Made by a program: the position numbers and the translations under genes. A DNA stretch of 64,000 bases from Mobula hypostoma. Its lineage: Eukaryota. Location: contig NC_086097.1 in assembly GCF_963921235.1 (NCBI RefSeq), positions 23,810,001 to 23,874,000 on the forward strand. The letters are read 5' to 3'. The notes beneath the pieces are model-generated. The model had not been told where the DNA came from, made no database searches, and worked only from the letters and a program-made list of their open reading frames with translations. The first letter of the stretch is position 1; each line of letters starts with the position of its first letter. Shown here piece after piece: positions 10,894 through 63,945 of the stretch.

Positions 10894-10931
10894 CAGTCAA
10901 TGTTTCAGGTCGAGACCCTTCGTCAGGACTG
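10894..10931 (-). ncRNA. Minimal type-I hammerhead ribozyme motif (PLE terminus), core intact
   Basis: Minus strand reads CAGUC CUGACGA A GGGU CUCG ACCU GAA ACAU U GACUG: 5-bp helix I, CUGANGA, 4-bp helix II, GAAA, UH. Confidence 0.8.
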
Positions 10932-12076
10932 AAGATGGAAGGGGCAAGGTGCCTTATAAAGAAGGTGGGGGGAGGGTGGGAAGGAGAAGGCTGGTAGGTT
11001 CCAGGTGAAAAACCAGTAAGGGGAAAGATAAAGGGGTGGGGGAGGGGATAGGCAGGAAAGGTGAAGAAGGAATAGAGGAAAGCACAATGGATAGTAGAAG
11101 GAGGCAGAACCATGAGGGAGGCGATAGGCAGCTGGAGGAGGGGACAGAGTGAAACTGGGATGGGGGAAGGGAGGGGCAAGGAATTACCAGAAGTTGGAAA
11201 ATTCAATGTTCATGCCAAGGGGCTGGAGACTACCCAGACAGTATATAAGGTGTTGCTCCTCCAACCTGAGTTTAGCCTCATCATGGCAGTAAAGGAGGCC
11301 ATGTATGGACATATCCGAATGGGAATGTGAAGTGGGTGGCAACTGGGAGATCCTGTCTGTTGTGGCGGATAGAGCGGTGGTGCTTGACAAAGTGGTCCCT
11401 CAATCTGCATCGGGTCTCACCGATGTAGAGGAGGCCGCACCAGGAGCATGGGATGCAATAGGTGACCCCAACAGACTCACAAGTGAGGTGTTGCCTCACC
11501 TAGAAGGACTGTTTGGGGCCCTGAATTGTGGTGAGAGAGGAGGTGTAGCGACAGGTGTAGCACTTATGCTTACAGGGATAAGTGCTGGGTGGGAGATCCG
11601 TGGGGAGGGATGTGTGGACCGGGGGTCGCGGAGGGAACTATCCCTGTGGAAAGTGGAGAGGGAAAGATGTGCTTAGTGGTAGGGTCCTGTTGAAGGTGGC
11701 AGAAGTTGTGGAGGATAATCTGCGGAGGCTGATGGGGTGGTAGGTGAGGACAAGGGGATCTCTGTCCCTGTTGTGGTGGCAGGAGGATGGGGTGAGGGCC
11801 AAAGTGTGGGAAATGAAGGAGATGCGGGTGAGGGCATCATTGATGACGTGAGAAGGGAAATCACGATCCTTAAAGAAATAGGGCATTTGAGATGTCCTGG
11901 AGCAGAAAGCCTCATCCTAGGAGCAGATGCGGCAGAGCCGGAGGAACTGGGAATAGGGAATAGCATTTTTGCATGTGGTAGAGCCCCAGCTATGCCTGCC
12001 TCTTCATTGGTTATGTGGTCCCCACCACCACCGCCCTCCTCCGGTTGGCGGAACTGGTGCTCACACTTAATCTCTT

Positions 12077-13276
12077 TTGGCTCTTCCCACTTTCTTCATA
12101 CCAATGGCTGTAGCTATGGGTACTCGCATGGGCCCCAGCTATGCCTGCCTCTTTGTTGGTTATCTGGAACAGTCTATACTCCAAACCTATATTGGTACTG
12201 CTCCCCAACTTTTCTTTCACTACATTGACGACTACATTGGTGCTGCTTCCTGCACCCACGCTGAGCTCGTCAATTTCATCGGCTTTGCTTCTAACTACCA
12301 CCCAGCCCTCAAATTCACTTGGTCTATCTCGGACACTTCTGTCCCCTTTCTCGATCTCTCGGTCTCCATTTCTGGAGACAGACTGTCCACTGACATCTTC
12401 TATAAGCCCACTGACTCTCATAACTACCTCGACTATACCTCTTCCCACCCTGCCACATGCAAAAATGCTATTCCTTATTCACAGTTCCTCCGTCTCTGCC
12501 GCATCTGCTCCCAGGATGAGGTTTTCCATTCCAGGACATCTCAAATGTCCTCTTTCTTTAAGGATCGTGGTTTCCCTTCTGCTGTCATCAATAATGCCCT
12601 CACCCGCATCTCCTCCATTTCCCATACTTCGGCCCTCACCCCATCCTCCCGCCACCACAACAGGGACAGAGTTGCCCTTGTCCTCACCTACCACCCCACC
12701 AGCCTCCGGATCCAGCACATTACCTTCCACAACTTCCGCCACCTTCAACAGGACCCCACCACTAAGCACATCTTTCCCTCTCTACCCCTCTCCGCTTTCC
12801 ACAGGGATTGTTCCCTCTGCAACTCCCTGGTCCACACATCCCTCCCCATGGATCTCCCACCCGGCACTTATCCCTGTAAGCGTAAGTGCTACACCTCTCC
12901 CTACACCTCCTCTCTCACCACCATTCAGGGCCCCATACAGTCCTTTCAAGTGAGGCAACACTTCACTTGTGAGTCTGTTGGGGTCATCTATTGCATCCGG
13001 TGCTCCCGGTGCGGCCTCCTCTACATCGGTGAGACCCGATGCAGATTGGGGGACCGCTTCGTTGAGCACCTCCGCTCTATCCGCCAAAACAGACAGGATC
13101 TCCCAGTAGCCACCCACTTCAACTCTGCTTCACATTCCCATTCGGATATGTCCATACATGGCCTCCTCTACTGCCATGATGAGGCCAAACTCATGTTGGA
13201 GGAGCAACACCTCATATACTGTCTGGGTAGTCTCCAGCCCCTTGGCATGAACATTGAATTCTCCAATTTCCAGTAA
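12077..13276 (+). pseudogene. 5'-truncated PLE ORF: RT C-terminal half, thumb, Cys-rich linker and GIY-YIG endonuclease (Neptune-like)
   Basis: AMGTRMGPSYACLFVG, YIDD, FLD, YKPTDSHNYLDYTSSHP, IPYSQFLRL.RICS, PGTYPCKRKC, VIYCIRCSRCGLLYIGET...RFVEH...PVATHFN; frame open for 399 codons. Confidence 0.93.
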
Positions 13277-14120
13277 TCCCATAGTTGGATGCATCAGCAA
13301 GGGAGATGAGGCTGAGTACAGGGCTATGGTAGGAAACTTTGTCACATGGTGTGAGCAGAATTATCTGCAGCTTAATGTGAAAAAGACTAAGGAGCTGGTG
13401 GAAGACCTGAGGAGAGCTAAGGTACCGGTGACCCCTGTTTCCATCCAGGGGGTCAGTGTGGACATGGTAGAGGATTACAAATACCTGAGGATACGAATTG
13501 ACAATAAACTGGACTGGTCAAAGAACACTGAGGCTGTCTACAAGAAGGGCCAGAGCCGTCTCTATTTCCTGAGGAAACTGAGGTCTTTTAACATCTGCCG
13601 GACGATGCTGAGGATGTTCTACAAGTCTGTGGTGGCTAGTGCGATCATGTCTGCTGTTGTGTGCTGGGGCAGCAGGCTGAGGGTGGCAGACACCAACAGA
13701 ACTCATTCGTAAGGACAGTGATGTTGTGGGGATGGAACTGGACTCTCTCACGGTGGTGTCTGAAAAGAGGATGCTGTCCAAGTTGCTTGTCATCTTGGTC
13801 AATGTCTCCCACCCACTACATAATGTACTGGGTGGGCACAGGAGTACATTCAGCCAGAGACTCATTCCACCGAGATGCAGCACTGAGCATCATAGGAAGT
13901 CATTCCTGCCTGTGGCCATCAAACTTTACAACTCCTTACTTGGAGGGTCAGACATCCTGAGCCAATAGGCTGGTCCTGGACTTATTTAATAATTTACTGG
14001 CATAATTTACATATTACTATTTAACTATTTATTGTTCTATTACTATTTATTATTTATGGACCAACTGTAACAAAAACCAATTTCCCCCGGGATTAATAAA
14101 GTATGACTATGACTATGACT
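13277..14120 (+). mobile_element. Rex1/Babar-like LINE, 5'-truncated, inserted at the PLE stop codon
   Basis: ORFs 13254..13712 (WCEQNYLQLNVKKTKEL..D...YKYL.I.IDNKLDW...KKGQSRLYFLRKLRSF) and 13726..13968 (SHPLH...RKSFLPVAIKLYN); AATAAA then (ATGACT)3 tail; TAAT on both sides. Confidence 0.93.
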
Positions 14121-14380
14121 AATTCCCTCCCCCTCCCATCCCGCATCCTAGTTTCACTCTGCCCCCTCCCCCAGCTGCCTATCACCTCCCTCATGGTTCC
14201 GCCTCTTACCCATTGTGTTTTCCCCTATTCCTTCTTCACCTTTCCTGCCTATCCCCTCCCTGCTTCCCCTTCCCCACCCCTTGATCTTTCCCCTTACTGG
14301 TTTTTCACCTGGCACCGACCAGCCTTCTCCTTCCCACCCTCCCCCCACCTTCTTTATAGGGCCTCTGCCCCCTCCCTCTT

Positions 14381-14418
14381 CAGTCCTGACAAAGGGTTCC
14401 GGCCCGAAACGTTGACTG
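14381..14418 (+). ncRNA. Minimal hammerhead motif, G8-to-A mutated
   Basis: CAGUC CUGACAA A GGGU UCCG GCCC GAA ACGU U GACUG; palindromic ACGU retained. Confidence 0.7.
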
Positions 14419-15449
14419 TTCGTTTCCACGGATGCTGCCCGACCTGCTGAGTTCCTCCAGCGTGTTGTGCGTGTTGCTTTGACCCCAGCATCTGCAGAGT
14501 ATTTTGTGTCTGCTGCTTGTACTGTTCTGCAGAACATTGTGGGCATAATACATTGGCACCGGAATGCGTGGCGACACTTGCGGGCTGCCCCCAGCACATC
14601 CTTGGATGTGTTAGTTGTGAACACAGATGACACATTTCACTGTTTGTTTTGACGTGTGTGGGAGAAATAAATGTGAACCTGAATCTGAAACAATGGTACT
14701 ACTCAAGCAATCAACTCAGTAAATCTTCTCAGTACCAGCATCAGATTTATGACAATCCATGAACCCATGAACAAAACTTGACTATTTTGCTCCCTCGCAG
14801 TATGTTATTTATGCTTCTTATTAAAACTTACTGTATTTTTTAATATTTTGCACAGTACTGCTGCTGCAAAACAACAAATTTAATGACATATGTCCGTGAT
14901 AATAAAGCTGATTTAGATTCTGATATATTTTCTTAAATAAGCAGGCCTAAACATAGCAGTTCCCAGTAGGTTTAAAATTATCATGTTGCTTTGCTCCTCT
15001 ACACTTCCTTCCCCTTATCTCTCAGGATGTTCGCAAGATGAGGGTTCATGACCAACCTTTAGCCTTGCATAGCTCCTCATAGAGATGCTGGTATCAATCA
15101 GGAAATCATTTTGTGCTGTAAGGTACCTGTTAGGTAATATTATTGTTCATTATCAAGAACTAAACACGGGATGAAATCTTCAGCGCATTATCTGAAATGT
15201 TATTTTAAAGCATGCCCACTAGATGTCACCTCTTAGTGATATAAATGAATGTCTGTTCGGAAATGATATGAACAATAGAAACAAACAAAATAGGAGCAGA
15301 TATGGGTCACGTGGCCCCTCGGATTTGTTCTGGTCTTCAAGATGACCATCGTCATTCTGGTTATTGTCATAGGTGGGTTGATACAGTGCAGAAATAGGTC
15401 CAAGCCAACTATTAGCCATGCAGTCACACTATTTCCATTTTATTTTTAT

Positions 15450-15728: not shown

Positions 15729-16069
15729 TCTTATTCTCCCCACAGTCCTTTCAACCTCTCCCTGATTCTACCACTCACCTACACTCCAGGGACAATTTAC
15801 ATTCAGGGACCAAGGATCAAATTTATTCACCATATACATTTACATTTGCTGTGGCGTGCAACAAAATACAACAGCATTCAACAATTATAAAAAATAAAGA
15901 ATTACACAAAATAAAGTTAGAGTTTAAAGAATGAATACAAAATAAAATGTACATAAATACATAGATACCAGCAAGAAAACTTCACTCCATCTTAGAAGTT
16001 TCTTTCCCCAGGCAACAAATCTGATTAGCCATTCTAGTTGTCCCCGACCCCCTCTATCTATTAAACCAT

Positions 16070-17390
16070 GATTGTAACAGGATTGGTCCGAGGCAGCATG
16101 GATTTAAGAAGGGGAAATCGTGCTTGACTAATCTTCTGGAATTTTTTGAGGATGTAACTATGAAAATGGACAAGAGAGAGCCAGTGGATGTAGTGTACCT
16201 GGACTTTCAGAAAGCCTTTGATAAAGTCCCACATAGGAGATTAGTGGGCAAAATTAAGGCACATGGTTTTGGGGGCAGAGTACTGACATGGATTGAAAAT
16301 TGGCTGGCTGACAGGAAACAAAGGGTAGCGATTAACAGGTCCCTTTTGGAATGGCAGGCGGTGACCAGTGAGGTACCGCAGGGTTCAGTGCTGGGACCGC
16401 AGCTGTTTACAATATATGTTATTGATTTAGATGAGGGAATTAAAAGTAACATTAGCAAATTTGCTGATGACACAAAGCTGGGTGGCAGTGTGAAATGTGA
16501 GATGGATGTTATGAGAACGCAGGGTGACTTGGACAGGTTGGGTGAGTGGGCAGATGCATGGCAGATGCAGTTTAATGTGGATAAATGTGAGGTTATCCAC
16601 TTTGGTGGTAAGAATGGGAAGGCAGATTATTATCTAAATGGAGTCAAGTTAGGAAAAGGGGAAGTACAATGAGATCTAGGTGTTCTTGTACATCAGTCAC
16701 TGAAAGCAAGCATGCAAGTACAGCAGGCAGTGAAGAAAGCTAATGGCACGCTGGCCTTCATAACAAGGGGAATTGAGTATAAGAGCAAAGAGGTCCTTCT
16801 GCAGTTGTACAGGGCCCTGGTGAGACCACACCTGGAGTACTGTGTGCAGTTTTGGTCTCCAAATTTGAGGAAGGACATTCTTGCTATTGAGGGAGTGCAG
16901 CGTAGGTTCACGAGGTTAATTCCCGGGATGGCGGGACTGTCATATGTTGAAAGATTGGAGCAACTGGGCTTGTATACTCTGGAATTTAGAAGGCTGAGAG
17001 GGGATCTTATTGAAACATTTAAGATTATCAAGGGATTGGACACGCTGGAGGCAGGAATCATGTTCCCGCTGATGGGTGAGTCCAGAACCAGAGGCCACAG
17101 TTTAAAAATAAGGGATAGGCCATTTAGAACGGAGTTGAGGAAAAACTTTTTCACGCAGAGAGTGGTGGATATATGGAATGCTCTGCCCCAGAAGGCTGTG
17201 GAGGCCAAGTCTCTGGATGCTTTCAAGAAAGAGATGGATAGAGCTCTTAAAGATAGCGGAATCAAAGGTTATGGGGATAAGGCAAGAACTGGATACTGAT
17301 TGTGGATGACCAGCCATGATCACAGTGAATGGCGGTGCTGGCTTGAAGGGCTGAATGGCCTACTCCTGCACCTATTGTCTATTGTCTATA
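16070..17390 (+). mobile_element. CR1/HER1-like LINE, RT domain to 3' end, relatively young
   Basis: Same-frame ORFs 16124..16672 and 16712..17299 separated by one TGA: SCLTNLLEFF, YLDFQKAFDKVPH, VPQGSVLGPQLF, KFADDTKL, LVRPHLEYCVQFW; (CTATTGT)n tail. Confidence 0.96.
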
Positions 17391-17768
17391 AACATTTTGA
17401 ATCACTTTTTTATAATACTGTTTACATTGTAAATCCATGCAGGTTAACCTGCATGTCTTTGAGGTATGGAAGGAAACTAGGATACTCAAAGGATACCTAT
17501 GTGTTCACAAGAAGAGCATGCAAACTCTTCAGATACTCTTCTTGTGACCATTTGAAGCTTCAATTCCACTTTCCTGTTTTCATCTCCATAACCCTTCATT
17601 TTCCCTTAAATCCAAGAATTGATAGTCCACAAAACAAATTGCCTGAAACATCAACTGTTTATTCCCCTCCATAGTTGCTGCCTGATCTACTGAGTTCCTC
17701 CAGTATCTTGTGTGTGTTGCTTCAGACTTCCAGCATGAGCAGAATCTCTTGTGCTTATGAGTAGAGTT

Positions 17769-18320: not shown

Positions 18321-19158
18321 CTCTGATGAAGAGTCTTTGACCTGAAACCATAATCTTGCCTCTCTTTCTGAAGGTGCTGCCTGATATACAGAGTGTTTCC
18401 ATCATTCTTCTGTTAAATTTTAGATCTCCAGTGCCGGCTAGCTTTCGAATTTTACCTGCCTCCGTTGGTAGCAGGTCATTAACTCAAGATGCACCCATGA
18501 GATTTGAGGACTTTAGTTCAGCTGAGGCAATGCAATGCAACTGGGGCATCATCAGTTTTGAGCTGAGATGATAAATCGAGGCTCAGTCTGGTCTTTCAGT
18601 ATAGTATGGCACGGTTTTGAAGAGGTGGGGGGCAATTTTATCCTCATTTGCTGTGTTTCTTGTGTTAACACTCCGACTATTGGACAGCAAAACACTTTGG
18701 GACATCTTAAGGGCACGTTATTAATGGAAGGCCTTTCATTGTGCACTGCAAGGATTTCACATGGGTTAGATCATAACAACATGGACATTTATTTGACTAA
18801 GTGATTGAGAGGAGCAGCCTGTCCAAGGTTGTAAAATATGTTTTGTGGTTTATAATTGCCCTGTGGGCACATCAGTGCTTTTAAATCTTTGAAACTCTTG
18901 AACATTTTCTCAGATTAGAGTGTGGAAGGAACACTGAAATAATTATTAGAGTGCTGACTGAGGAGCTTAACTTGCTCTTGCTTTTCTCTGGGGAATGATG
19001 GTGGTTTTTGATACCAGACTTCATATATTTTTGTAAGGCAGCATAGTGGTGAGGTTACTAGACTAGCAATCCAGAGACCTGGATCTGGAGAGCTGAGTTC
19101 ATACTCCTTCACAGGAATTCAGGATCCAGTTAATTAGATAAGGTCCAGAATTAAAAAT

Positions 19159-19770: not shown

Positions 19771-19808
19771 GAGTCCTGATGAAGGGTCTCAGCCTGAAAC
19801 ATTGACAG
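19771..19808 (+). ncRNA. Minimal hammerhead motif at the start of a PLE terminal fragment (19771-19870)
   Basis: GAGUC CUGAUGA A GGGU CUCA GCCU GAA ACAU U GACAG. Confidence 0.65.
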
Positions 19809-21380: not shown

Positions 21381-22989
21381 CAGAAGACAAAATTTAAGGA
21401 AAATGAAATGTTATTTCAGATTCAGTTTTATTTATTTATCACATGTACATTGAAACATACAGTGAAATGTGTCATCTGTGTTGACAACAAACACACTCAA
21501 GGATGTGCTAGGGGCAGCCGACCAGTGTTGCCACACATTCTGCACCAACATAGCGTGCTCACAATGTTCAGCAGAACAACACAAGCAACTACAAGAACAA
21601 CAACAAGATGAAACAAGGTGACATTTGCCACCCACAGTCTCTCTCACATACCCAGGCAGTCCCCCAACCCCAGGAAAGTCTGCTTCCAGGCCTCCAGTCC
21701 TTGGGTCCAAATTCTTAGGTTTGTTGACATCAGGCTTCCCACCTCTAGTCCCTGGTCCGGAGTTTCAGATTCAGCCTTTGGGCCGCTACCTCCAGACTGG
21801 CCAACTGCCTTTTGACCTTTGGGCTTTCTACCTCCAGACTCATTCTTCCTACAGGGGAAACTGAAAGAATTAGTTGCAGAGGGAATTAAGGAGAGGATGG
21901 AAGGGACAAACGGAATATTCTGGAGAGAGTGAGGTCTGGGTTGCCAAGGTGATTCCACTGTTTACAGACCGACTGTTTGAAAGATTAGTGAGGGGCTAGA
22001 TATAGATCAGAACCAAACAAAGGGACATGTAATAGTTACGAAATGCAAGTCACAGCTGTTTCTGAGACTAAAGGGAGAATGGTCAAAATACTCAGCAGGT
22101 CAGGCAGTGTCTGTAGAGAAAGGAGAATCGAATCAATATATTCTCATTTTCTTCTCAGGTGTCAGCAATACTCTGACTTGCTTCTTTTGTTGTTGTTTCT
22201 CTTTCCTTCATTAATCTTTTGGACATATTTCCATATATTGTGTATTAGCCTGGCAACTACGGCCTCTTGCTGCCAATCAGAGACATTACCTTTGTCCTTT
22301 CCATCCTTTTCTCACTGGATTTTTCAGGGGATGGCTCATCCCTGGGCTTTCCTTTGCTGGAGAGTTCTGGAGGCAGCATATTAGAAGTATGTAGAGTGCG
22401 TTTGACGTATATAAAGTGGAGATTAAAAAAAATCATTCAAATGATTGTGAAATTGATGTTCAAAAGCAGAAGGGGAATTCAGGTCAGCCATGAATGCACT
22501 GAGTGACAAGGCAGGCTTAAGGGGCCACATGGCCTACTGTCTTGTTATCTTTGTGAGTCCTCTCTGTGGTTTCACATTTCTAACAAAGGATCTTTGAATT
22601 TCAATTCTATCTCTTTTCATCTTTCCACTTGACCTGCTGAGTGATTCTGTTTGCTGCAAGATTTCCAATTTTCAATTGCTATCTTAATCTGGCCAATATG
22701 TGGCTTCTGACCTGATGGTCTCTGAGCTGCCCTATAAAGCCATTCAGTTCAAGGGCAATTATGGATGGACATTAAATTCCGGCTCAGCCAGCTGCAGTGA
22801 TATCTAATGAATTAATAAATACTATAATAAAAAGAAACCCCTCCTCCATGGCATGGGGTGGTGTGGGGGTGTGGGGCTGTGGAGCAGGATGCTGGGAGAG
22901 ACAATGCAAACTCTTGGGTCTGTTCTGTCATTCAACTTGATAATGGCTTGGCCTCTGTCTCCATTTTTCCACCCAATCCCATATTCTCC

Positions 22990-23730
22990 GAATCAGAGTT
23001 AGAATCAGGTTTATCGTCACGGAGATATGTTGTGAAATGTGTTGCTTAGCGGCAGCAGTACAGTGCAAGTCATGTTACAAAAAGAAATATATAGAAGTAT
23101 AAATAAACGGAAAATTCTGGGGAAACTCAGGAGGTCAGGCATCATCTGTGGGGAGGAATGAACAGCTTACGTTTCAGACTGAGACTCTTCATCAGGACTG
23201 GAAAGGAATGTCGAAACGTCGACTGTTCATTCCTCTCCATAGATGCTGCCTGACCTGCTGAGTCCCTCCAGCATTTTGAGTTTGTTCCCTTGGATTTCCA
23301 GAATCTGCTGAGTCCCTTGTGTTTAAAAAATTAATGAGTGGTACAAAAAGAGAGCAAAACTGAGGTGGTGTTCCTGGGTTTACTGTCCACTTAGAAATTT
23401 GATGGCAGAGGGGAAGAAGTTGTTCCTAAAGTGTTGAGTGTGTGTCTTCAGGCTCATACACCCCTTCCTTGATTGTGGTAATGAGAGGAAAGTATGTCCT
23501 TCTGAGGGTCCTTAAGGATGGATGCTGCCTCCTTCATGCATCGCCTTTGGAAGATGTCTTTGATGTTGGGAAGGCTAGTGGCTGTGATGGAACTGAGTTT
23601 ACAACACTCTGCAGATTCTTCCAATCCTGTGCAGGGGCCCCTGCATACCAGCTGGTGATGCAACCAGTTAGAATGCTCTCCATGGAACACCTGAAGATGT
23701 AGGAGTTTGCTGGAGCCTTTGGTGATGTAC
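22990..23730 (-). mobile_element. Rex1-like LINE 3' fragment carrying a nested PLE fold-back
   Basis: YIFRCSMESILTGCITSWYAG..AQDWKNLQSVV and RRCMKEAASILKDP. Confidence 0.85.
23115..23325. mobile_element. PLE-terminus fold-back element with hammerhead motif at 23163-23200 (-)
   Basis: actcaggaggtcaggcatcatctg and atagatgctgcctgacctgctgagt are inverted; minus-strand CAGUC CUGAUGA A GAGU CUCA GUCU GAA ACGU A. Confidence 0.8.
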
Positions 23731-28032: not shown

Positions 28033-28094
28033 CTTCTGAACACTGGCATAGGTAGATAAGAGTCGTAAAGAAAGCTTTGTCACATAGGCCTTCA

Positions 28095-29010
28095 TTCTCC
28101 ACAGTTTCCATCATCTTCAATGGGATTCTATCCCAAAACACATATTTATCTCCTCCCAATCTCGGCTTTCTACAAGGATCGTTTCTTCCATGATTCCCTT
28201 ATCCATTCATCTCTCCTCAGTAATCTCCCTTCTGGCGTGTTTCCCTGCAAGCAACAGGAATTCTACATCTTCCGATTCACCTCCATTCAGGGTTCCTGAC
28301 GATCCTTCCGGGTGAGCTACGCTTCATCTGTGAATCTCTTTGGGTTGTCTACTGTATACGGCGCTCCCGATGCAGCTGCCTCTATATTGATGAAAAAGGA
28401 TGTAATTTGAAGGGCTGCTTTACTAAATACCTCAACTCCATCCACAATAAGTGAAATTCCTCAGTGATCAACCATTTTAATTCCTATCTTCATTCCCATT
28501 TCAAAATGTCGGTCTATGGCCACCTCTCTGCCATGATACGGCTACTCGTAGGGTGCAGGAACAACAACCCATATAACATCTAGGTAGCTTCTAACCTGAA
28601 AGCATCAACATCAATTTCCCTTTCTGGTAATTTTTTCCCTCCCCCTTCTCTCTTTTTCTCATCCCCACTCTGGTCTTTTACCTCCACTCTTCACCTGCCC
28701 ATCACTTCCCCCCATGTGCCCCTTTCTTCAATGGTCCACTCTGCTTTCTGATCAGATTCCTTCTTCTCCAGCTCTTTACCTTTTTTTACTTATAACCTCG
28801 CGACTTCTTACTTCAAGACCCTCCCCCTCGCACTTGGTTTCACCTATCACCTTTCCCCCTACCCCCCACCTTTTTATTCTGGCATCTCCACCCCCCCCAC
28901 CCCTTCCTTTCCTGTCCTGACAAAAGGTCTTGGCCCACAAAGTTGATTGTTTATTCATTTCCATAAATGTTGCCAGACCTGCTGAGTTCCTCTAGCATTT
29001 TCTGTGTATA
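28095..29010 (+). mobile_element. Older PLE fragment: GIY-YIG region, 3' terminus and decayed hammerhead
   Basis: Colinear with 12725-13275 and 14120-14470; gtcctgacaaaaggtcttggccc at about 28914. Confidence 0.8.
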
Positions 29011-32589: not shown

Positions 32590-33390
32590 TTAAGTTCAAA
32601 GTTCAAATAAGTTTATTATCAAAGTACATATATGTTACCATATGCAGCCTTGAGGTTTATGTTTTTGCAAGCATTCATGATAAAACAAAGAAATTCAACA
32701 GAATCGTTGAAAAACTAAACCCAACAGAAGACTAAAAACAACTAGTGTGCAAAAGAAGACAATCTGTGCAAATACACAAATAATAAATAAATGAACAAAC
32801 AAATAATATTGAGAGCACAAGCTGTAGACTCCTTGAAGGTGAGTCTATAGGTTGGGGATTCAGTTCAGAGTTGGAGTGAGTGAAGTTATCCACGTTGGTT
32901 CAGGGGTCCTGATGGTTGAAGGGGTAATAACTGTCTCTGAAACCTGGTGGTGTGTGACTTAAGGCTCCTGCACTCCTTCCCAATGGCAGCAGTGAGAAGA
33001 GAGCCTGGTCTGTGTGGTGAGGGTGGGGGGGGGTGGTCCCTGATGAAGGATGCTGCTTTTTGGGGCAGAGCTCCATGTAAATGTATCGATAGTGGTGAGG
33101 ACTTGTCCTGTGATGGATTGGGTTGAATTCAGAACTTTAGTGTGCAGGCTTTTCCATTCTTGAGTATTGATGTTTCTATACCAGACTGTGATGCTACCAG
33201 TCAGGATACAGTTCATTGTACAACAATAGAATTCTGTCAGATTTTCAGATGACATGCCAAATCTGTGCAAACTTCCAAGAAAGTAGAGGCGTTGTGATAC
33301 CTTCTTTGAAATGGTACTTTTGTGCTGGTCCCAGGATAGATCCACTAATAGGCAAAGGAATTTAAAGTTACTGACCCTCCACCTCGGATC
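32590..33390 (-). mobile_element. Rex1-like LINE 3' fragment
   Basis: ORF 32959..33345 DLSWDQH...KKVSQRLYFL.SL.RFGMS...ILTGSITVWY. Confidence 0.88.
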
Positions 33391-35949: not shown

Positions 35950-36175
35950 ACAAACAAGAGAAAACCTGCAGATGCTGGAAATCCAAGTAACACACACAAA
36001 AATATGGAGGAACTCAGCAGGCCTGGCAGCATCTGTGGAAAAGTGCAAACTGTTGATGTTTCAGGCCGAGACCCTTCATCCTGACATAGGGCCTGGCCTG
36101 AAACGATGGTTATTTACTGTTTTTCACAGATGCTGCCTGGCCTCCTGATTTCCTCTACCATTTTGTGTGTGTTTA
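35950..36175. mobile_element. PLE-terminus fold-back element, axis inside the hammerhead core
   Basis: acacacacaaaa..tggaggaactcagcaggcc.ggcagcatctgtg is inverted as cacagatgctgcctggcc.cctga.ttcctc.a.cattttgtgtgtgt; centre cccttcatc|ctgacataggg at about 36080. Confidence 0.85.
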
Positions 36176-39185: not shown

Positions 39186-40359
39186 CAACATATTTATCAA
39201 CTGTAGTTGGTAACTAAATTAGGATTTTTTAATGAAGTTATTCATGTGCAAACTGTTTGCACAAGTGTGTGTGTGCGTGTGTGTGTGTCCATGTATACGC
39301 GTGAGTGTGTTTGCAGATGTGTACATATTTGCAATAGTGGAACAAACTTGTTCTTAACTCTGAGTGTATGTCTAAGAAGAAGGTTTATTATGGCCACATG
39401 TAGCAATATACAATGAACAGCTGGAATTGCATTCAGTTCATGCAGATCAACTCATTGCTCAGAGCACTGAGGTGGTATCAGGTAAAACATTAATAGGACG
39501 TTGGATAAAGTGCAACAGGTACAGAGAGAGTGCAGCACAGGTAAACAGTAAGGTGCAGATTGTGAGGTCAAGAGTCCTGTATGCTGTTCATACAGATCAA
39601 ATCATTACACAGTACATTGAGATAGTGCAAGGTAGAACAATAGCAGAATGCAGAATAAAGTATTATGGATACAGGAAAAGTGCAATGCAGGTAGACATTA
39701 TGATGCAAGGTCATAACAAGGGAGAATGTGAGGTCAAGTATCCATCATATGATATTAGGAAACATTCAAGAGTCTGTTAACAGCGGGATAGAAGGTGTCC
39801 TTAAGCCTGGTGGTACGTGCTTTCAGGCTTTTGTATTGTCTGCCCAATGGAAGAAGTGACAGGGAGAATGTCCAATGCAGAATGTCCAGTGCAGATTGCC
39901 ATGGGAAAGAGAAAGCCATAATTAGAAGGAAATGGCAGAATAAGTTAAAAAAAAGGAAAGAATGAGAATCAATAGGCAATGGATGAGAGATACTGGGATT
40001 TTTCTCAGAGGAGAGAATGTTATTTTATGCTTAGAATAGTGTTCAAAACATGGAGAAACTATTTTCAATGTTAGTGGGTTGGGAACTGAAGGATCAAGGT
40101 TAAGGACCTTCATCATCAGGGATATGACCTCTTTTCATTACTACTGTCAGGGACACACTCAACATTTTAGGAACAGCTCCTTCCCCTCTGCCATCAGATT
40201 CCCGAATGGTCCATCAATCCATGAACATTACCTCACATTTTGCAACACACACAAAATGCTGAAGGAGTTCAGCAGGTCAGGTAGCATCTATGGAAAAGTG
40301 TAAACAGTTGACATTTTGGGTTCTGCAGGGTCCTGATAGAGGGGCTCAGCCTGAAATCG

Positions 40360-42859: not shown

Positions 42860-44480
42860 TCCACGCTCACCCCATCTTCCCCAAAGAGATCCTGCCACCA
42901 AAACACACTTTTACCTCTCCCCTACATCTGCTGTCTATGGGGATTGCTCCCACCGCGATTACCTTGTCTATTCATCCCTCCCCACTAATCTCTTTCCTGG
43001 CAAGCGGCCAAAGTGCTATACTTGCCCATTCACCTCCTCCCTCTCCTCCGTTCAAGACCCCAAAGAGTTCTTTCAGGTGAGGAAACACTTTACCTCTGAA
43101 TCTGCTGGGGTCGTCTAATGTATCCGGTAGTCTGCATACGTCCTCTACCTTGATCAGAACCAACTTAAATTGGGGGACCGCTTCGTCGATCAACTCTGCT
43201 CTATCCGCCAAAAGCAGAACTTCCTTGTGGCCAGACATTTTAATTCAGACTCCCATTCCCATTCCAACATGCCAGTCCGTGGTCCCCTCTCATACCAGGA
43301 GGAGGCCACCCTCAGGATGGAGGAGCAACACCTTACAATACATTCTGTCTGAGTAGCCCCCAACCTGATGGCATGAATATCAGTTTCTCCTGATACAAAA
43401 AATATCTCCCCCCCACTTCTTTTATTCCCCACTCTAACATCTTATCTCTTCTCACCTGCCTATCACCCCCTCTTGGTGTCCCTCCTCCTCCTCTCCTATC
43501 AGATTCCTTCCTCTCCAGCCCTTTACATTTCCCACCCTTTTCCACCCACAAACAAGGGAAAATCTGCAGATGCTGGAAATCCAAGCAACAGCCACAAAAT
43601 GCTGGAGGAATTCAGCAGGCCAGGCAGCATCTATGGAAAAGAGTACAGTCGGCATTTTGGCCTGAGACCCTTCATCGGGACTGGAGAAGAAAATGAGGAG
43701 TCAGAGTAAGAAAGATGGGAGGGAAGGTGAAAGTGGGAGGGGAGAGGTGTGAAGTAAAGAGTTGGGAAGTTGATTGGTGAAAAAGATACAGGGCTGGAGA
43801 AGGGGGAATCTGATAGTAGAGGACAGAAGAAGGCATGGAAGAAAGAAAAGAGAGAGGACCACCAGGTGGAGGTGATGGGCAGGTAAGGAGATAAGGTGAA
43901 AGAGGAAAATACGAATGGAGAAAGGTGAAAGTGAGGGGCATTATCAGAAGTTTGAGAAATTGATGTTTATGCCATCAGGTTGGAAGCCACCTAGAGAGAA
44001 TATAAGGTGTTGTTCCTCCAACCTGAGTATGGCCTCATCGCGACAGTAGAGGAGGCCATGACCTGAGATGTTGGAATGGGAATGGGAAGTGGAATTAAAA
44101 TGGGTGGCTATTGGGAGATCCTACTTTTTCCGGTGGATGGAGCATAGATGCTTGGTGAAGCCGTCTCCCAATATGTGTTGGTCAAGGGAGCCACGTAGGT
44201 AGCGATCCCTGTGGAAAGCAGAAAGTTGGGGGGAGGTGAGGGAAAGATGTGCTTAGTGGTGGGATCCCACCAGAGACTGCAAAATCCTTTCCTACCCACC
44301 TGGCTTCACCTATCACCTTCTAGCTATCCTCCTTCCTCTCTCTCCATCTTCTTATTCTGGTGTTTTCCTCCTTTTCTTCCCAGTCCTGAAGAAGTGTCCT
44401 GGCCCAAAATGTTGACAGTTTATTCATTTCCATAGATGCTGCCTGACCTGCTGAGTTCCTCCAGCATTTTGTGTGTATTG
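42860..44480. mobile_element. Cluster of three PLE fragments in alternating orientation (+,-,+)
   Basis: GDRFVDQLCSIRQK....VARHFNS.SHSHS.M.V.G (43170..43352); minus copy 43550-44270; plus 3' end 44280-44480; decayed hammerheads at 43646-43683 (-) and 44381-44418 (+). Confidence 0.85.
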
Positions 44481-48544: not shown

Positions 48545-50330
48545 TATCAAAGTTCAAAGTAAATTTGAAATCAAGGTATATATCTGTCACCATATACAAC
48601 CCTGAGATTCATTTTCTTGTGGGCATACTCAATAGTCCATCATAATAGAATCAATGAAAGACCACACCAACTACGACCATTCAACTAGAGTGCAAAAGAT
48701 AACAACTTGTGCAAATACAAAAATAATTAAGTAAGTAATATCAAGAACATGAGATGAAGAGTCCATGAAAGTGAGTACATAGGTTGTGGGGACAGTTCTG
48801 TGATGGGGCAAGTGAAGTTATCCCCTCTGGTTCTAGAGCCGAATGGTTGACAGACAATAATTGTTCCTGAAATTGGTGGTGTGAGTCCTAAGGCTCTCGT
48901 ATCTTCTTCCTAATGGCAGCATCAAGAAGAAAGCATGACCTGGGTGGTGGGGGTCGCTGATGATGGATGCTGCTTTCTTGCAACAATGTTCCAAGTAGAC
49001 GTGCTCAATGGTGGGGAGAGCTTTACCCATGATGGACTGGGTCATATCCACTACTTTGTGGAGGATTTTTCACCAGTATTAGTGTTTCCATATAAGGTTG
49101 TGTTGCAGACAGTCAATATATTTTTCACCACACATCTATTGAAGTTTATCAAAGTTTTAGATATCATGCTGAATCCTCACAAACTCTGAAGGACGTAAAA
49201 GTGTTGCTGTGTTTTCTTTATAATTTCCCTTACATGTTGGGCCCAGAACAGGTCCCCTCAAAGGATAACACCAAGGAATTTAAAGGTACTGACCCTCTCC
49301 ACCTCTGATCCTCCATGAGGCCTGGCTCATGGGCCTCCGGTTTCCTCCTCCTGAAGTGAATAATCAGCTCCTTGGTCTTGCTGACATTGAGTAAAAGATT
49401 GTTGTTATGGCAACACTCAGCCAGATTTTCAATTTCCCTCCTATATGCTAACCTGTCACCACCTTTGACCTACGTCAGTGGTATCATCAGCAAATTTGAA
49501 TACGGCATTGGAGCTGTGCTTAGCCACACAATCACAAGCATAAAGTGAGTAGAGCAGGGAGCTAAGCACACAGCCTTGTGGTGCACCTGTGCTGATAGAG
49601 ATTGTGGAAGAGATGTTGTTGCCAATCCGAATTGACTAGAGTCTACAAGTGAGGAAATCAAGGATCCAATTGCACCTGAAGGTATTAAGCTGAGGTCTTG
49701 AAGCATATTGCTTAATTTTGAGGGGATGATGGCATTGAATGTTGAGCTGTGGTCAATAAAGAGCATCCTGATGTATGTATCTTTGCTGTTCAGGGTTGCC
49801 AATGAGATGGCATCTGCTGTTAACCTGTTGTGATGGTAGGCAAATTGGAGTGGATCCAAGTCTTTCCTCAGGGAGGAGTTGATACGTTTAATCACCAACC
49901 TCTCAAAGCACTTCATCACTGTGGATGTAAGTGATACTGGATGATAGTCACTGAAGCAGGTTACCACGTCCTTCTTACGCACCAGTTTAATTCAAGCCTG
50001 CTTGAAGGAGGTGGGTATCTTAGACTGCCGAAGCGAGAAGTTAAAGATCTCAGCAAATACTCCAACCAGTTGATCATAAAAGATCTTTTTTAACTTGGCC
50101 AGGATACCTCCTCTGGGCTGGGTGATTTTCAAGTGTTCACTCTCCTGAAGGCTGCTTGCACATTGGACTCAGAGTCTAAAATCACAGGATCATCGAGGGC
50201 TGCAGGAGTTCGTGATGACTCCTCCATGTTTTGATGGTGGAAGCAAGCATAAAAAGTCACTAAGCTCAGCCTGTTGTCACCTATCTTGCTAAATTTTACT
50301 GTGTAAGAGGTGATAGCTTTCAAGCCCTGC
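48545..50330 (-). mobile_element. Rex1/Babar-like LINE, about 1.8-kb decayed RT to 3' end
   Basis: LWQGLKAITSY, TCFSDYHPVSLTSTVMKCFERLV...LDPLQFAY...YIRMLFID.SS.FN.I.P, KAASII.DPHHPGHA.F..LP.GRRY. Confidence 0.92.
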
Positions 50331-60689: not shown

Positions 60690-61410
60690 TAGATAGATAT
60701 AGATAGATAGATAGACATACTTTATTGATCCTGAGGGAATTTGTGTTTCGTTACAGCATTACCAACCAAGAACAGAGTACAAACATAGCAATACAAAACC
60801 ACAAACAATCAAATAATAATATGTAAACTATGCCAGAGGGTAATAAGTCCAGGACCAGCCCATTGGCCCAGGGTGTCCGACCCTCCAAGGGAAGAGCTGC
60901 AAAGTTGATGGCCACAGGCAGGAATGACTTCCTATGATACTCAGTGCTGCATCCTGGTGGAATAGTCATTGTCATAGTCATACTTTATTGATCCCAGGGG
61001 AAATTGGTTTTCATTACAGTTGCACCATAAATATTAAATAGTAATAGAACCATAAATAGTTAAATTGTAATATGTAAATTATGCCAGTAAATTACAAAAT
61101 AAATCCAGGACCAGCCTATTGACTCAGGGTGTCTGACCCTCCAAGGGAGGAGTTGTAAAGTTTGATGGCCACAGGCAGGAATGACTTCCTATGACGCTCT
61201 GCGTTGCATCGCGGTGGAATGAGTCTCTGGCTGAATGTACTCCTGTGCCCACCCAGTACATTATGTAGTGGATGGGAGACATTGTCCAAGATGGCATGCA
61301 ACTTAGAAAGCATCCTCTTTTCAGACACCACCGTCAGAGAGTCCAGTTCCATCCCCACAACATCACTGGCCTTATGAATGAGTCTCTGGCTGAATTTACT
61401 CCTGTGCCCA
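60690..61410 (-). mobile_element. Two tandem Rex1-like 3' ends with (TATC)n and (ATGACT)n tails
   Basis: ORF 61116..61466 is nearly identical to 13726..13968; second copy at 60690-60963. Confidence 0.9.
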
Positions 61411-61476: not shown

Positions 61477-62175
61477 GTGATTGTACTTACCTCTCACTCA
61501 GTGATTGTACTTACCCTTCGCACAGTGTGATTGTACCTACCCCTCAATCAGATTATACCTACCCCTTACTCAGTGTGATTGTATCTACCCCTCGCTCAGT
61601 GTGATTGTACCTACCCCTCACTCAGTGTGATTGTACTTACCCCTCACTCAGTGATTGTACTTACCCCTCGCTCAGAGTGATTGTACCTACCCCTCACTCA
61701 GAGTGATTGTACCTACCCCTCGCTCAGAGTGATTGTACTTACCCCTCCCTCAGGGTGATTGTACCTACCTCTCACTCAGTGTGATTGTACCTACCCTTGC
61801 TCAGAGTGATTGTACTTACCTCTCACTCACAGTGATTGTACTTACCACTCACTTACAGTGATTGTACCTACCGCTCGCTCAGAGTGATTGTACCTACCCC
61901 TTGCTCAGAGTGCTCGTTCTTACCTCTCATTCACAGTGATTGTACTTACCCCTCACTCAGAATGATCGTACCTACCCCTCACTCAGAGTGATTGTACCTA
62001 CCCCTCGCTCAGAGTGATTGTACTTACCCCTCGCTCAGAGTGATTGTACCTACCCCTCGCTCAGGGTGATTGTACCTACCCCTCGCTCAGAGTGATTGTA
62101 CCTACCTCTCGCTCAGTGTGATTGTACCTACCTCTCGCTCAGAGTGGTTGTACTTACCTCTCACTCAGAGTGATT
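61477..62175. repeat. 26-bp minisatellite GTGATTGTACCTACCCCTCGCTCAGA, about 27 units
   Basis: gtgattg recurs at 61988, 62014 and 62040; a few units are 24 bp. Confidence 0.97.
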
Positions 62176-63013
62176 ATTTCTGGTTATGCGAAATGTCTTG
62201 GTTCACTTAGTCATTTGTACTGCTTTTCAGTGATTGAGCTGATGGTAGCACAATCCATGATATGTTTTCCTTGTGTATTATGCGTAAAAGAAATAGGTAC
62301 TGGAGCCTGAAGTGGAATTTTCATAAAGCTCTTGAATAACCATCAGAATATCAGAAGAGCGAATCCAAAGACCACTTATATGTTAATGCATTTAAGATCC
62401 TCTAAGACTGTAAGGTAACGTTGAATCAGCATTAATTAAATATTTATTGCATTCTTCGAGTAGCTTATGGCAGAGATCACTGATGTGTAGACAGAGCCCC
62501 ATTCAAGTGAAGGACTGCCTTCCTGTGGAAAAATAACTACAGGCAAGTGTTTCAATTGTTTCACTTTAAAATAGCATTAGAAGCATTGAAAGAGCAGTTA
62601 ATGATATTGTTAATTAAATTTAAGTTATTAAAAATAATTATTCTGAATTATTTATCAATTTGAATAATTTTTGATTGCCTCTGAATATCAGAGACAATTA
62701 AAAACAGTTTAAAAACAGTTCAAAGTTCTTTTACAGCTGGCAAGCTCAGAATTGTGGGATTGGGGCCTCAGCGTGAACAGCAGGCGTTCTCCTACCCACA
62801 TAGTTCCTTCTTGCAGGTGGCTGTCAGGTGCAGCTCTGTTGTCTGTGTTCAGCGACTGGTCACTGAGAATTGGTTTATCATTGTCATCCACATAAAGGTA
62901 CAGTGAATATCTTAACACAATAGATTCTGCTGATGCTAGAAATCGAGAGTAATATTCACACAAAATTCTGGAGGAACTCAGCAGGTCAGCTGGAGTCTAT
63001 GGAGAGGAATAAA

Positions 63014-63051
63014 CAGTCGACGTTTCTGGCTGAAACTCTTCATCAGGACTG
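63014..63051 (-). ncRNA. Minimal hammerhead motif, core intact, helix II decayed
   Basis: CAGUC CUGAUGA A GAGU UUCA GCCA GAA ACGU C GACUG, within PLE terminus 62915-63051. Confidence 0.65.
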
Positions 63052-63187
63052 GATATGGTCTGATCAGCAGCTGAACCTCTTGACCATGTTGGTATGCTTT
63101 TATGCATTGAGTTGCCTGCACATGATTGGCTGATTGCATTAATGAGCCAGTGTAGAGGTGTACCTAACAAAGTGGCCACTGAGTGTA
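63052..63187 (-). mobile_element. Tc1-like derivative, 5' end only
   Basis: Matches 24615-24758; TIR gtacctaacaaagtggccactgagtg then TA. Confidence 0.82.
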
Positions 63188-63779
63188 TATTGATTATAAC
63201 AATGTCTTTATTCTGTGAAGTGCTTGACTCTTCACCTAGATGTGCTGAAAGAAATCTGCATTGAGAATGAGCTATGCTTTGCTTCATATATTTTCGCTGC
63301 AGGATCTGTGCATCTTGCTGAGCGAGCATGTCGGAAATCTTAGGTAAATATGTTGATGGCCTGTACTGGAGTCAACCTTTTGCTCCTATCGCTTATATTT
63401 TTCTGTCAGGAAATTGAAACTTGCATGAATATTTATGCTGAGTATCACAGGCTGCTCAACTGTTGGAATTTATATGCTAAACAGAATCATTATAATATTA
63501 TTTTTTTCCAACAGGAGGTTTGTTGTTAACACAAATCAGAGCAAAACATGTTTTTATTTTGATTCTTGTGGGCTCTTTCCATTGTCGTGTGATTGAGCAG
63601 ATGTTTCCGATACTTCATGGGGCTTAGCCTAAATTGTCCTCATTGGTCTGTGGTGTTGCAATGTTCCAAATTAAGGTTCAAATATACACCAATCAGAAGA
63701 AGAGTGGCTGGTAATTTACCCTATAGGTGTGAAATACTGGGGCACATCTCCTTTTGGCCAGAAATGGATTACCACCCAG

Positions 63780-63945
63780 AAACATGAGAAAGTCCTGAAG
63801 ATGCTGGAAATCTAAAGCAACACACAAAAAAATGCTGGAGGCACTAAGCAGGTCAGGCAGCATCTACGGAAATGAATAAACAGTCGATATTTCTGGCTGA
63901 GACCCTTCAGTCCCGAAGGATTTCCATGGATTACCACCTGACCAT
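63780..63945. mobile_element. PLE terminus with short inverted remnant
   Basis: aaaatgctggagg.act.agcaggtcaggcagcatc...cagtcgatatttctggctgagacccttc then cagtcccgaagg. Confidence 0.7.

Follow-up and report, generated by a model that had tools for sequence, protein, structure and literature searches.

A repeated 38-base motif in Mobula hypostoma DNA very probably represents the minimal hammerhead ribozyme motif of Penelope-like elements

The 38-base motif repeated in the 64-kb stretch of Mobula hypostoma DNA analysed here (the window) is, by descent and architecture, very probably the minimal type-I hammerhead ribozyme motif (min-HHR) of Penelope-like elements (PLEs). As an overall explanation, it is quite probable that a PLE min-HHR positioned near the element tail was spread by 5'-truncated insertion and has decayed since. 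This kind of element is already described, and the family in the genome of M. hypostoma is a very large member of it.

The consensus of 51 distinct copies was CAGUC-CUGAYGA-A-GGGU-loop-GCCC-GAAA-CGU-C/U-GACUG, which comprises CUGAYGA and GAAA boxes, helices I and II of 5 and 4 bp, respectively, and C or U at position 17. In this set and in the genome matches, the C3-U4-G5-A6-N7-G8-A9 and G12-A13-A14 boxes were in the correct order and correctly spaced. A9, the extra A, A13, A14 and A15.1 were invariant among the 51 copies, and most other core positions were at least 90% conserved. The extra A, which is unpaired and located between A9 and G10.1, was found in 51 of 51 sequences. In the master sequences, helix III was replaced by the palindromic ACGU, followed by C or U, never G, at position 17. 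Their helix I was either CAGUC/GACUG or UAGUC/GACUG and their helix II either GGGU/GCCC or GGGU/GCCU. Between families, helix I differed by a single C-G to U·G change and helix II by a single G-C to G·U change. Because the helices varied so little between families, covariation was uninformative.

All sequence features of the published PLE min-HHR were found in the motif (Cervera & de la Pena, 2014, PMC4209133). The extra nucleotide that separates position 9 from 10.1, the palindromic 15.2-16.2 as well as a dimer model have been described for PLE min-HHRs in that study. Similar to those min-HHRs, the motif has a type-I topology, a 5-bp helix I, an unpaired nucleotide separating A9 from G10.1 and a palindromic ACGU, is located in a repeat flanking an RT/GIY-YIG ORF and forms consensus families within one genome. 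In both cases the copies are mostly solitary, with some opposite-strand pairs 100-700 bp apart. Different from the Schistosoma and Drosophila examples, whose helix II has 6-8 bp, helix II has 4 bp here. The hammerhead anatomy, with its ACGU palindrome and the additional A that precedes helix II, and the PLE kinship proposed in the initial annotation both agree with the known PLE min-HHR type (PMC4209133).

A covariance model, R1, was built from the 51 distinct copies, and the window was scanned with filters off. Thirteen matches were listed, 11 full-length (E <= 6.5e-6) and 2 marginal. Seven of the 11 were found by construction because those copies were in the training set, and four were outside it (44378+, 23160-, 28909+ and 63878-). 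A search with the 27-nt core consensus, allowing up to 3 mismatches, found 3 matches in the window versus 0 in 100 dinucleotide shuffles. With 11 full motifs per 64 kb (approximately one per 6 kb), or 18 tail-bearing pieces, the previous estimate of one per 4-5 kb was fair.

The sequence read-out placed all seven main copies at the positions and strands claimed for them. Each departed from the consensus of the initial annotation at several positions. The min-HHR of the window's main PLE (14381..14418, +; 65.5 bits with R1) had a UCCG-type loop and a G8-to-A change (CUGACAA), and the one in the 5'-truncated inverted arm belonging to this insertion (10894..10931, -; 62.7 bits) had ACAU in place of ACGU. 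Both boxes and ACGU were intact in the copy at 63014..63051 (-), in which 2 of 4 helix II pairs were kept. The copy at 19771..19808 (+) had a decayed ACGU, 3 of 5 helix I pairs and an insertion 5' end ~4 nt before the CUGA box. Two boxes were mutated at 43646..43683 (-), upstream of which was a sense PLE ORF remnant (43965-44171, -). G12 was mutated (AAAA) at 44381..44418 (+), a copy outside the training set that scored 42.7 bits. The copy at 23163..23200 (-) had a head-to-head partner at 23212-23286 (+), a second arm that was truncated.

All eight sites previously regarded as partial were also real copies or fragments. Four were full-length and decayed: 6509..6546 (-; reported near 6510), with two boxes mutated; 28912..28949 (+; near 28914), which follows a PLE ORF remnant (28094-28609, +) by ~300 nt; 36050..36087 (-), head to head with a second arm at 36077-36173 (+); and 63881..63919 (-), which scored 27.8 bits and lacked most of the CUGANGA box. 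Three were 5'-truncated fragments: 17641..17719 (+; near 17640), beginning within the helix II 3' strand and continuing into the tail; the decayed 18323..18403 (+; near 18322), beginning at the CUGA box; and 40242..40320 (-; near 40325), beginning in the helix II 3' strand. At 56150 (-), a 5' half fused to the tail was identified by eye only. Two fragments, 22090-22120 (-) and ~37959-38037 (-), had been missed in the initial annotation. The inverted second arms at 23212-23286 (+) and 36077-36173 (+) were absent from it as well.

The window copies are decayed fossils. None of the 10 scored window copies was intact, that is, kept two boxes, ACGU and two helices. Box 1 and box 2 were each retained in 6 of the 10, and ACGU with the position 17 feature in 3. 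As had been suggested, many of the changes were CpG transitions: in 17 copies, 53 of 106 differences were C>T or G>A at 10 CpG positions, and the change rate was 0.35 per site at CpG sites versus 0.10 elsewhere. Once inserted, the copies decay neutrally, chiefly at CpGs.

Linkage of the motif to PLEs was evident at the 30 genomic loci fetched with an RT/GIY-YIG ORF. The motif was in sense at 23 of them, at 21 of which it followed the ORF by ~270 nt, in agreement with the earlier claim of a sense-oriented motif 3' of the PLE ORF. It was also ~95-130 nt upstream of the element 3' end. The PLE unit consisted of a 5'UTR of ~630 nt, an RT/GIY-YIG ORF of ~845 codons, a 3'UTR of ~270 nt, the 38-nt HHR and a tail of ~95 or ~130 nt. 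In a second PLE family, the ORF was 78% identical, the 3'UTR was unalignable, and the HHR and first part of the tail were 80-85% identical.

In the window, sense ORF remnants were found upstream of the motifs at 10894-, 14381+, 28914+ and 43646-. The ORF at 12071-13276 (+) had a weak GIY-YIG match (E 8.8e-4), which was below Pfam's cut-off, and YIDD and GIY-YIG motifs were visible in it. It had 442 homologues, many with precomputed PF00078 (RVT_1) and PF01541 (GIY-YIG) domains. The direct PLE copy at 12019..13280 (+) contained the RT end (YIDD), a CxxC...Cx3C linker, a GIY-YIG endonuclease and a stop. It was followed by an unrelated ~840-bp repeat (13281..14119), inserted between the ORF end and the 3'UTR, and then by the PLE 3'UTR, HHR and long-form 3' tail (14120..14509, +). 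Because this repeat intervenes, the HHR of the main PLE is 1.1 kb, not 0.27 kb, after the ORF. The inverted 5'-truncated copy at 10860..11978 (-) contained the C-terminal ORF half, 3'UTR, HHR and partial tail and matched locus L022 (1856-3015) at 87%. It adjoined the direct copy head to head. Judged only from the CxxC...Cx3C linker before GIY-YIG, the PLEs here are probably of the Neptune type; such a Zn-finger-like linker has been ascribed to Neptune and Nematis (Craig, 2021).

The PLE hallmarks described previously, which are a pLTR from partial tandems, an adjacent inverted 5'-truncated copy and a 30-40-bp tail (Craig, 2021), were all found here, including 5' truncation. A partial-tandem pLTR, in which the HHR and tail were joined to a 5'UTR, was present in 3 of 16 N-terminal loci (L049, L050 and L053), and 95 junctions of HHR-tail with 5'UTR were found genome-wide. 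In tandem copies, the HHR was ~730 nt before the next ATG. Two alternative 3' ends were ~34 nt apart, which corresponds to the 'tail'. Inverted 5'-truncated copies were adjacent to direct copies, and in 8 of 8 abutting head-to-head pairs, the alignments of both arms began at or inside the motif. Moreover, one full copy (L039) was flanked by the halves of a split host repeat.

Insertion proceeds from the 3' end and leaves most copies 5'-truncated, so that nearly all fragments carry the HHR and tail. For this reason, the motif is dispersed at approximately one copy per 6 kb, whereas ORFs are less common. Among 109 copy 5' ends, 23 fell within the motif's 5' part, 4 were at model positions 45-53 and none was at positions 36-44. 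The scissile bond is between positions 43 and 44, at which no pile-up of 5' ends was found in these 109 copies, a sample of low power. Any HHR-cut templates left no visible pile-up.

Similar to these copies, the Poseidon PLE of Anolis carolinensis (PAc) has a 'tail' of 100-200 nt from the HHR to the end of the genomic copy and two alternative 3' ends close together (PMC11167929). The same study reports in vitro cutting and extension of both DNA strands, in line with the inverted copies that lie head to head here. Different from PAc, whose ORF start codon is described there as lying inside the HHR, the HHR here is ~270 nt past the stop codon, and the main variants have CUGACGA without AUG.

The very large family suggested from the window was borne out genome-wide. 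Exact matches to CTGAYGA-N13-GAAACGTYGAC, which covers the core and cleavage site, numbered 83,845, versus 2 for the reversed control. The 27-mer had 95,820 matches within 2 mismatches, versus 0 in the control. The exact core matches are ~10-20 times the numbers called 'remarkable' previously, 4,000 in coelacanth and 9,000 in Xenopus, in a study whose main text does not name cartilaginous fishes (PMC4209133). The commonest exact variant accounted for 39,897 of the 83,845 copies and had G10.1·U11.1 in place of the canonical G-C, whereas a conserved G10.1-C11.1 is stressed for the published min-HHRs (PMC4209133). Its G-C counterpart had 6,207 exact copies, and the G10.1-C11.1 pair was present in the ORF-linked family.

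In source copies, the motif may self-cleave in vivo, for which the chances are about even. Following the literature, source elements would exist as partial tandems (pLTR-ORF-pLTR) with two sense HHRs per transcript. The monomer would be unable to form helix III, and two motifs would pair via the ACGU palindrome, probably aided by the element's own protein. A cut after GUC (C17) would then yield unit-length RNAs from tandem or read-through transcripts. Dimer cleavage is a model from the literature with low in-vitro rates, and the min-HHRs of metazoan PLEs cleave poorly in vitro (PMC4209133). That cleavage is required for amplification seems unlikely. Naiad PLEs thrive without HHRs (Craig, 2021), and the HHR of the Anolis PLE is reported to need protein and to be dispensable for in vitro insertion (PMC11167929).

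A possible but less likely alternative is that selection retains the 38-nt element chiefly for its role as a structured signal in RNA or cDNA, with the hammerhead boxes inherited and cleavage weak or dispensable in this lineage. The signal would be a 13-bp interrupted rod hairpin beside the tail box, either recognised by the PLE protein or serving as a site of RT pause and template switch. This alternative overlaps with the preferred explanation and differs only in what selection maintains. Predicted nearest-neighbour folding favoured the inactive rod, in which G5-A6-Y7-G8 is paired with C15.2-G16.2-U16.1-C17. In the monomer, its energies were -11.0 to -14.5 kcal/mol and those of the HHR fold -7.0 to -10.5, and the dimer MFE was -30.3 to -34.1 versus -11.5 to -19.9 kcal/mol for the double hammerhead. 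The rod's advantage is 2-4 kcal/mol for each monomer and >10 kcal/mol for the dimer, although these energies leave out tertiary contacts and protein. Moreover, Y7, C15.2/G16.2 and C17 are not needed by the hammerhead yet exactly complete the rod, the adjoining 3' tail box equals the motif in its conservation between families, and positions 10.1-11.1 are G·U in the most prolific variant. The 23 of 109 copies ending within the motif, the 8 of 8 abutting pairs starting at or inside it, and the reported in vitro insertion by the Anolis PLE without HHR activity and with extension of both DNA strands (PMC11167929) also point to a signal. However, C3, U4, A9 and G12-A14, which are unpaired in the rod, were conserved in three subfamilies, as the hammerhead needs. 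In addition, conservation of HHRs among PLEs extends from fungi to vertebrates, and some of these HHRs are robustly active (PMC4209133).

It is very unlikely that the dispersed copies, instead of being truncated PLEs, form a separate non-autonomous family (SINE-like, or a type-I HHR retrozyme of the non-LTR kind) with only the tail in common with PLEs. In many window copies, the shared sequence does span only approximately -7 to +130 nt relative to the motif, and vertebrate retrozymes, including one of a cartilaginous fish, are reported as PLE-pLTR derivatives (bioRxiv 10.64898/2026.07.22.740005). Animal non-LTR retrozymes, as presumed pLTR derivatives, are also reported to have a type-I HHR, a short palindromic helix III and presumed dimer action (PMC7229834; bioRxiv 10.64898/2026.07.22.740005). 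However, they are described there as short head-to-tail tandem repeats (150-450 bp), each with a type-I HHR, that show canonical loop-loop contacts and give circular RNAs, whereas the copies here are dispersed and reach into the PLE ORF, and the loop-loop features are missing. No motif-bearing tandem array was found in the 64-kb window, and among the first 100 places of the exact-match listing, same-strand neighbours within 1 kb were rare (2, versus 9 head to head). Furthermore, 3 of 10 copies of the commonest variant in the fetched loci shared 513-600 nt of upstream sequence, and in locus L002, of the same family, the upstream region aligned to the PLE ORF.

Rfam hammerhead families include Hammerhead_1 and Hammerhead_3. 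No Rfam hammerhead model matched at the gathering score within the 64-kb window, and on L007:1400-1600, a segment containing an intact copy, no Rfam hammerhead family matched at a threshold as loose as E <= 10. These models share the catalytic boxes with the motif and require helix III, which is absent from the min-HHR class. Although the boxes are short and without an Rfam match, chance resemblance, in which a conserved 3' repeat segment merely contains CUGANGA and GAAA, is hardly credible, as the boxes, spacing, two helices, extra nucleotide, palindrome, H17 and PLE position all agree with the published min-HHR.

Among the copies of the PLE min-HHR, none without an intron-like segment was identified. 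In all three subfamilies, a pyrimidine tract followed by CAG was immediately 5' of helix I, the same place at which the intron of D. virilis Penelope ends (PMC4209133).

Reading both strands at the 15 cited places identified the 38-nt hammerhead motif at all seven main sites proposed by the initial annotation, 10894(-), 14381(+), 19771(+), 23163(-), 43646(-), 44381(+) and 63014(-), on the strands assigned to them there. The eight additional sites regarded as partial or decayed were all found, from the sequence read-out, to carry degraded or incomplete versions of the motif. The consensus read was CAGTC-CTGAYGA-A-GGGT-CTCG-GCCC-GAAA-CGT-Y-GACTG, in which the CUGAYGA and GAAA boxes are accompanied by a helix I of 5 bp and a tetraloop-capped helix II of 4 bp. 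The unpaired A between A9 and G10.1 was invariant (51/51). Moreover, A15.1 and U16.1 surround a C-G step, which makes ACGU palindromic, and position 17 is C or U. An extra nucleotide, a G10.1-C11.1 pair, palindromic 15.2-16.2 and a position in the partial-tandem repeat flanking the ORF (pLTR) are the marks of the minimal hammerhead ribozymes (min-HHRs) of metazoan Penelope-like elements (PLEs) (Cervera & de la Pena, 2014, PMC4209133). Judged by its sequence architecture, the motif is a hammerhead. Rfam yielded no hammerhead match in the window at the gathering score and none on one intact copy even at E <= 10. This blank is expected because the motif is without helix III, and it is still counted here as a failed test; all copies of the motif are missed by Rfam-based annotation.

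The 27-nt core matched the window three times with up to 3 mismatches and never in 100 dinucleotide-preserving shuffles. A covariance model of 44 positions and helices I and II (R1), built from 51 distinct copies from the window and genomic loci, gave 11 full-length matches at E <= 6.5e-6 and 2 marginal ones in the window with filters off. Of these 11 matches, seven are training sequences, and those at 44378(+), 23160(-), 28909(+) and 63878(-) lay outside the training set. In addition, an nhmmer profile of the motif and the tail that follows it detected 18 pieces in the window, among them two fragments absent from the initial annotation and, for two inverted pairs, the second arm. In none of the 10 scorable window copies are both boxes, ACGU and both helices preserved together; the window copies are all dead. 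The CpG decay noted initially was confirmed: 53 of 106 differences in 17 copies were C>T or G>A at the ten CpG positions, and the per-site change in the same sample was 0.35 at CpG positions versus 0.10 elsewhere.

The window ORF at 12071-13276(+) had a weak GIY-YIG match, and YIDD, a CxxC...Cx3C linker and GIY...YIG are recognizable in it. Among its 442 homologues, ray and shark proteins rank best, with identities of 81-66%, and many of the 442 possess RVT_1 and GIY-YIG domains. As a domain combination, RVT_1 with GIY-YIG is the PLE architecture, and the linker motif suggests that the element is probably Neptune-like. A genome search with this ORF returned 235,124 first-look candidates, and all 103 that were scored matched. 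When the motif was sought at <=6 mismatches in 30 loci fetched with the ORF, it was sense to and 3' of the PLE ORF in 23, in agreement with the arrangement first proposed, and was not found at that threshold in the other 7. The spacing was near-fixed, at ~270 nt after the ORF, in 21 of the 30 loci, and one locus had a shorter spacer. In the window's own PLE copy, the motif is 0.87 kb further from the ORF than usual, and an unrelated ~840-bp repeat at 13281-14119 is inserted between its ORF and 3'UTR. A frame in this repeat, 13251-13712(+), matches Pfam ALKBH8_N (E 7.8e-13); the same family was matched again at 32959-33396(-), and further copies of part of the repeat were found at 60711-61303(-). 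The inserted repeat may represent the C-terminal portion of a LINE ORF. The ORF at 16025-17299(+) was rejected as the PLE ORF of the motif fragment at 17641, as it has RVT_1 (E 1.8e-24) and no PLE ORF similarity, and the pairing is coincidental. Similarly, an RVT_1 frame at 49470-49991(-) (E 4.8e-9) has no PLE ORF similarity, and both frames are presumably LINE remnants.

Three loci carrying perfect 27-mers (L002, L006 and L007) belong to a second PLE family, referred to as family B, whose ORF end was 78% identical in DNA to that of the ORF-linked family. The 3'UTRs of the two families were unalignable, and the motif and first part of the tail were 80-85% identical. Thus, the motif and the adjoining tail box have been conserved between source lineages. 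The helices varied too little between the families for covariation to be informative. A further genomic PLE lineage, many copies of which retain long open frames, shared 61-67% identity with the ORF-linked family over its N-terminal 250 residues.

The element has a 628-nt 5'UTR, and the truncation points of other copies were scattered. An N-terminal query gave 33,777 first-look candidates versus 235,124 for the C-terminal query, which fits heavy 5' truncation. Of 16 loci fetched with the ORF N-terminus, 3 have a partial unit of 3'UTR, HHR and tail upstream that directly adjoins the 5'UTR, and the 30-nt tail-5'UTR junction had 95 genome matches at <=3 mismatches; this arrangement is the partial-tandem pLTR. 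Two alternative copy ends ~34 nt apart constitute the PLE tail. One copy (L039) was flanked on both sides by halves of another repeat that is uninterrupted at a second locus (L042). In the window, the main PLE consists of an inverted arm at 10860-11978(-) joined to a direct arm at 12019-14509(+), so that a single complex insertion accounts for the motifs at 10894(-) and 14381(+). Abutting pairs among 109 non-redundant copies were head-to-head in 8 cases and tail-to-tail in 1. Among the first 100 matches listed for the core pattern CTGAYGA-N13-GAAACGTYGAC (both boxes, ACGU, Y17, the start of helix I and any helix II), there were 9 (-,+), 0 (+,-) and 2 same-strand pairs within 1 kb. Neighboring motifs <1 kb apart were almost always head-to-head with tails outward, as at window 23111-23286 and 35988-36173 and at locus L043:2439-2609. 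Some of these pairs, such as that of L043, are perfect palindromes centered 0-2 nt before the CUGA box, and the junction positions varied, but inside or just 5' of the motif. Craig et al. (2021, PMC8557442) present as typical of PLEs 5' truncation, pLTR-forming partial tandems, a truncated copy lying adjacent in inverted orientation, a tail of 30-40 bp and an HHR close to the 3' end, and all of these traits were found in the element of this genome. In vitro, the Anolis PLE cuts both DNA strands and extends them (PMC11167929), which would yield head-to-head inverted pairs.

The family was also proposed to be very large, and the genome bears this out. In the 3.48-Gb assembly containing the window, the core pattern had 83,845 exact matches versus 2 in the control, and the 27-mer with <=2 mismatches had 95,820 versus 0 for its reversed control. 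R1 detected 8 copies in 50 kb sampled at arbitrary round coordinates, a density close to the 11 in the 64 kb of the window. Roughly extrapolated from these 114 kb alone, the genome-wide number of recognizable copies may reach several hundred thousand. With 8.4e4 or more core-intact motifs in 3.5 Gb, the load is high for a vertebrate of this size and 10-20 times the counts termed remarkable in 2014 for PLE min-HHRs (Cervera & de la Pena, PMC4209133). For scale, as many as 120,000 retrozyme copies have been attributed to the axolotl.

The motif is best read as the min-HHR of a PLE superfamily that has been very successful; its architecture, position in the element, copy number and decay were all observed directly. 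Following the literature, two sense motifs ~3.7 kb apart in tandem source copies would pair through ACGU and, assisted by protein, would trim the transcript after GUC. Lunse, Weinberg & Breaker (RNA Biol) reportedly describe hammerheads that 'cleave RNA as dimers'. PLE min-HHRs have been proposed to act as dimers, and their activity in vitro was low (Cervera & de la Pena, 2014, PMC4209133). A review likewise describes PLE hammerheads as slow to cleave, even as dimers (PMC6765202). The HHR of the Anolis PLE depended on the element's protein, insertion in vitro did not require it, and RNA-seq showed no ends at its site (PMC11167929), and Naiads without HHR are described as proliferating well (Craig et al., 2021, PMC8557442).

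The monomer minimum-energy fold is predicted to be a rod in which G5-A6-Y7-G8 pairs with C15.2-G16.2-U16.1-C17, at -11.0 to -14.5 kcal/mol versus -7.0 to -10.5 for the hammerhead fold. For two monomers, the nested double-hammerhead reached -11.5 to -19.9 kcal/mol versus a dimer optimum of -30.3 to -34.1, and the predicted probability of the helix III pairs was ~1e-10; these energies leave out tertiary contacts and protein. The best fold of the 38-mer in intact copies, such as L007:1492-1535(-) and L022:2941-2984(+), is predicted to be an interrupted 13-bp rod, favored by the complementarity between GAYG (5-8) and CGUC (15.2-17). These nucleotide choices are not required by a hammerhead, and they may provide a monomer off-switch or a protein-binding hairpin. 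Moreover, the commonest exact variant has GCCU, i.e. G10.1·U11.1, with 39,897 genome copies versus 6,207 for its G-C counterpart and 1,377 for the variant of the ORF-linked family. The G·U variant retains its four remaining CpGs, indicating a source-level variant rather than decay, and its copies continue into family-B PLE sequence. Its first 100 matches listed included 8 (-,+), 0 (+,-) and 1 same-strand pairs within 1 kb.

Copies would be expected to start at the first base after C17 if cleaved RNAs usually served as templates. Among 109 copies, a small sample from ~300 kb of loci mostly chosen by motif or ORF, with the window and 50 kb as its unbiased share, no copy started at model positions 36-44, 4 started at 45-53 and 23 at 13-35, within the 5' part of the motif; the remaining starts were further upstream or ambiguous. 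Truncation was scored only for nhmmer starts >=13, the first ~10 columns of the model being family-specific. Together, the folding, the G·U dominance, the 5' ends and the literature counsel caution on self-cleavage.

The main rival explanation is that in this lineage the motif is maintained mostly for a role as structured signal or pause site beside the tail box, which is not mutually exclusive with its being a min-HHR. A stricter version, in which the selected role is a structured pause or template-switch point and not catalysis, is in our view improbable. It is consistent with the G10.1·U11.1 of the most prolific lineage (~40,000 identical cores), with the predicted, favored rod, in which both the core and the scissile bond are buried, with copy 5' ends and head-to-head junctions inside or just before the motif rather than at the cleavage site, and with the excess of (-,+) over (+,-) pairs (9 to 0 within 1 kb, first 100 matches listed). 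Under this version, cDNAs primed from both DNA ends would stall and anneal at the hammerhead-shaped hairpin, which contains GGCC, ACGT and GTCGAC palindromes. If true, the motif would cause the inverted pLTR architecture, unexplained since Penelope was described. The ~40,000 identical G10.1·U11.1 copies beside ~6,000 G-C copies constitute a natural experiment bearing on whether PLE spread needs hammerhead cleavage.

As a min-HHR, the motif is of a known kind, an ordinary feature of an ordinary repeat. Vertebrate surveys of PLE hammerheads covered fishes, coelacanth, Xenopus and reptiles (PMC4209133), and one chondrichthyan was surveyed for retrozymes (bioRxiv 10.64898/2026.07.22.740005). No account of this PLE family was found in open-access text on shark or elasmobranch Penelope. 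A genome of the cartilaginous-fish type joins the PLE-hammerhead hosts, with the nearest ORF homologues in rays and sharks. What goes beyond textbook knowledge is of a quantitative or suggestive nature: the load, the G·U dominance, the rod competing with the active fold and the strict orientation of head-to-head pairs.

In all three subfamilies, helix I is directly preceded by a pyrimidine tract followed by CAG (CTTCCCTCTWCAG, CTCTTCCTTCAG and TTTTCTTCTCCAG). These 15 nt, e.g. window 14366-14380, resemble a 3' splice site, and their place matches that in D. virilis Penelope, where the 5' end of helix I is the point at which an intron terminates (PMC4209133). Related tails were also present in assembled contigs of public runs from several organisms. 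For the 44 nt that immediately follow the motif on its 3' side (the GATGCTGCC...CTGCTGAGTTCC box, L024:2996-3039), the summed word depth in contigs of three such runs from different organisms was 13 to 30 times that of the motif bin, contig depth being a poor measure. This suggests that the tail box is common to many more repeat lineages than any one hammerhead sequence. Finally, two window repeats are unrelated to the motif: a TGGACC hexamer array of ~112 copies at 6893-7563, and a 26-bp tandem repeat of 27 copies with 85% matches at 61477-62175.
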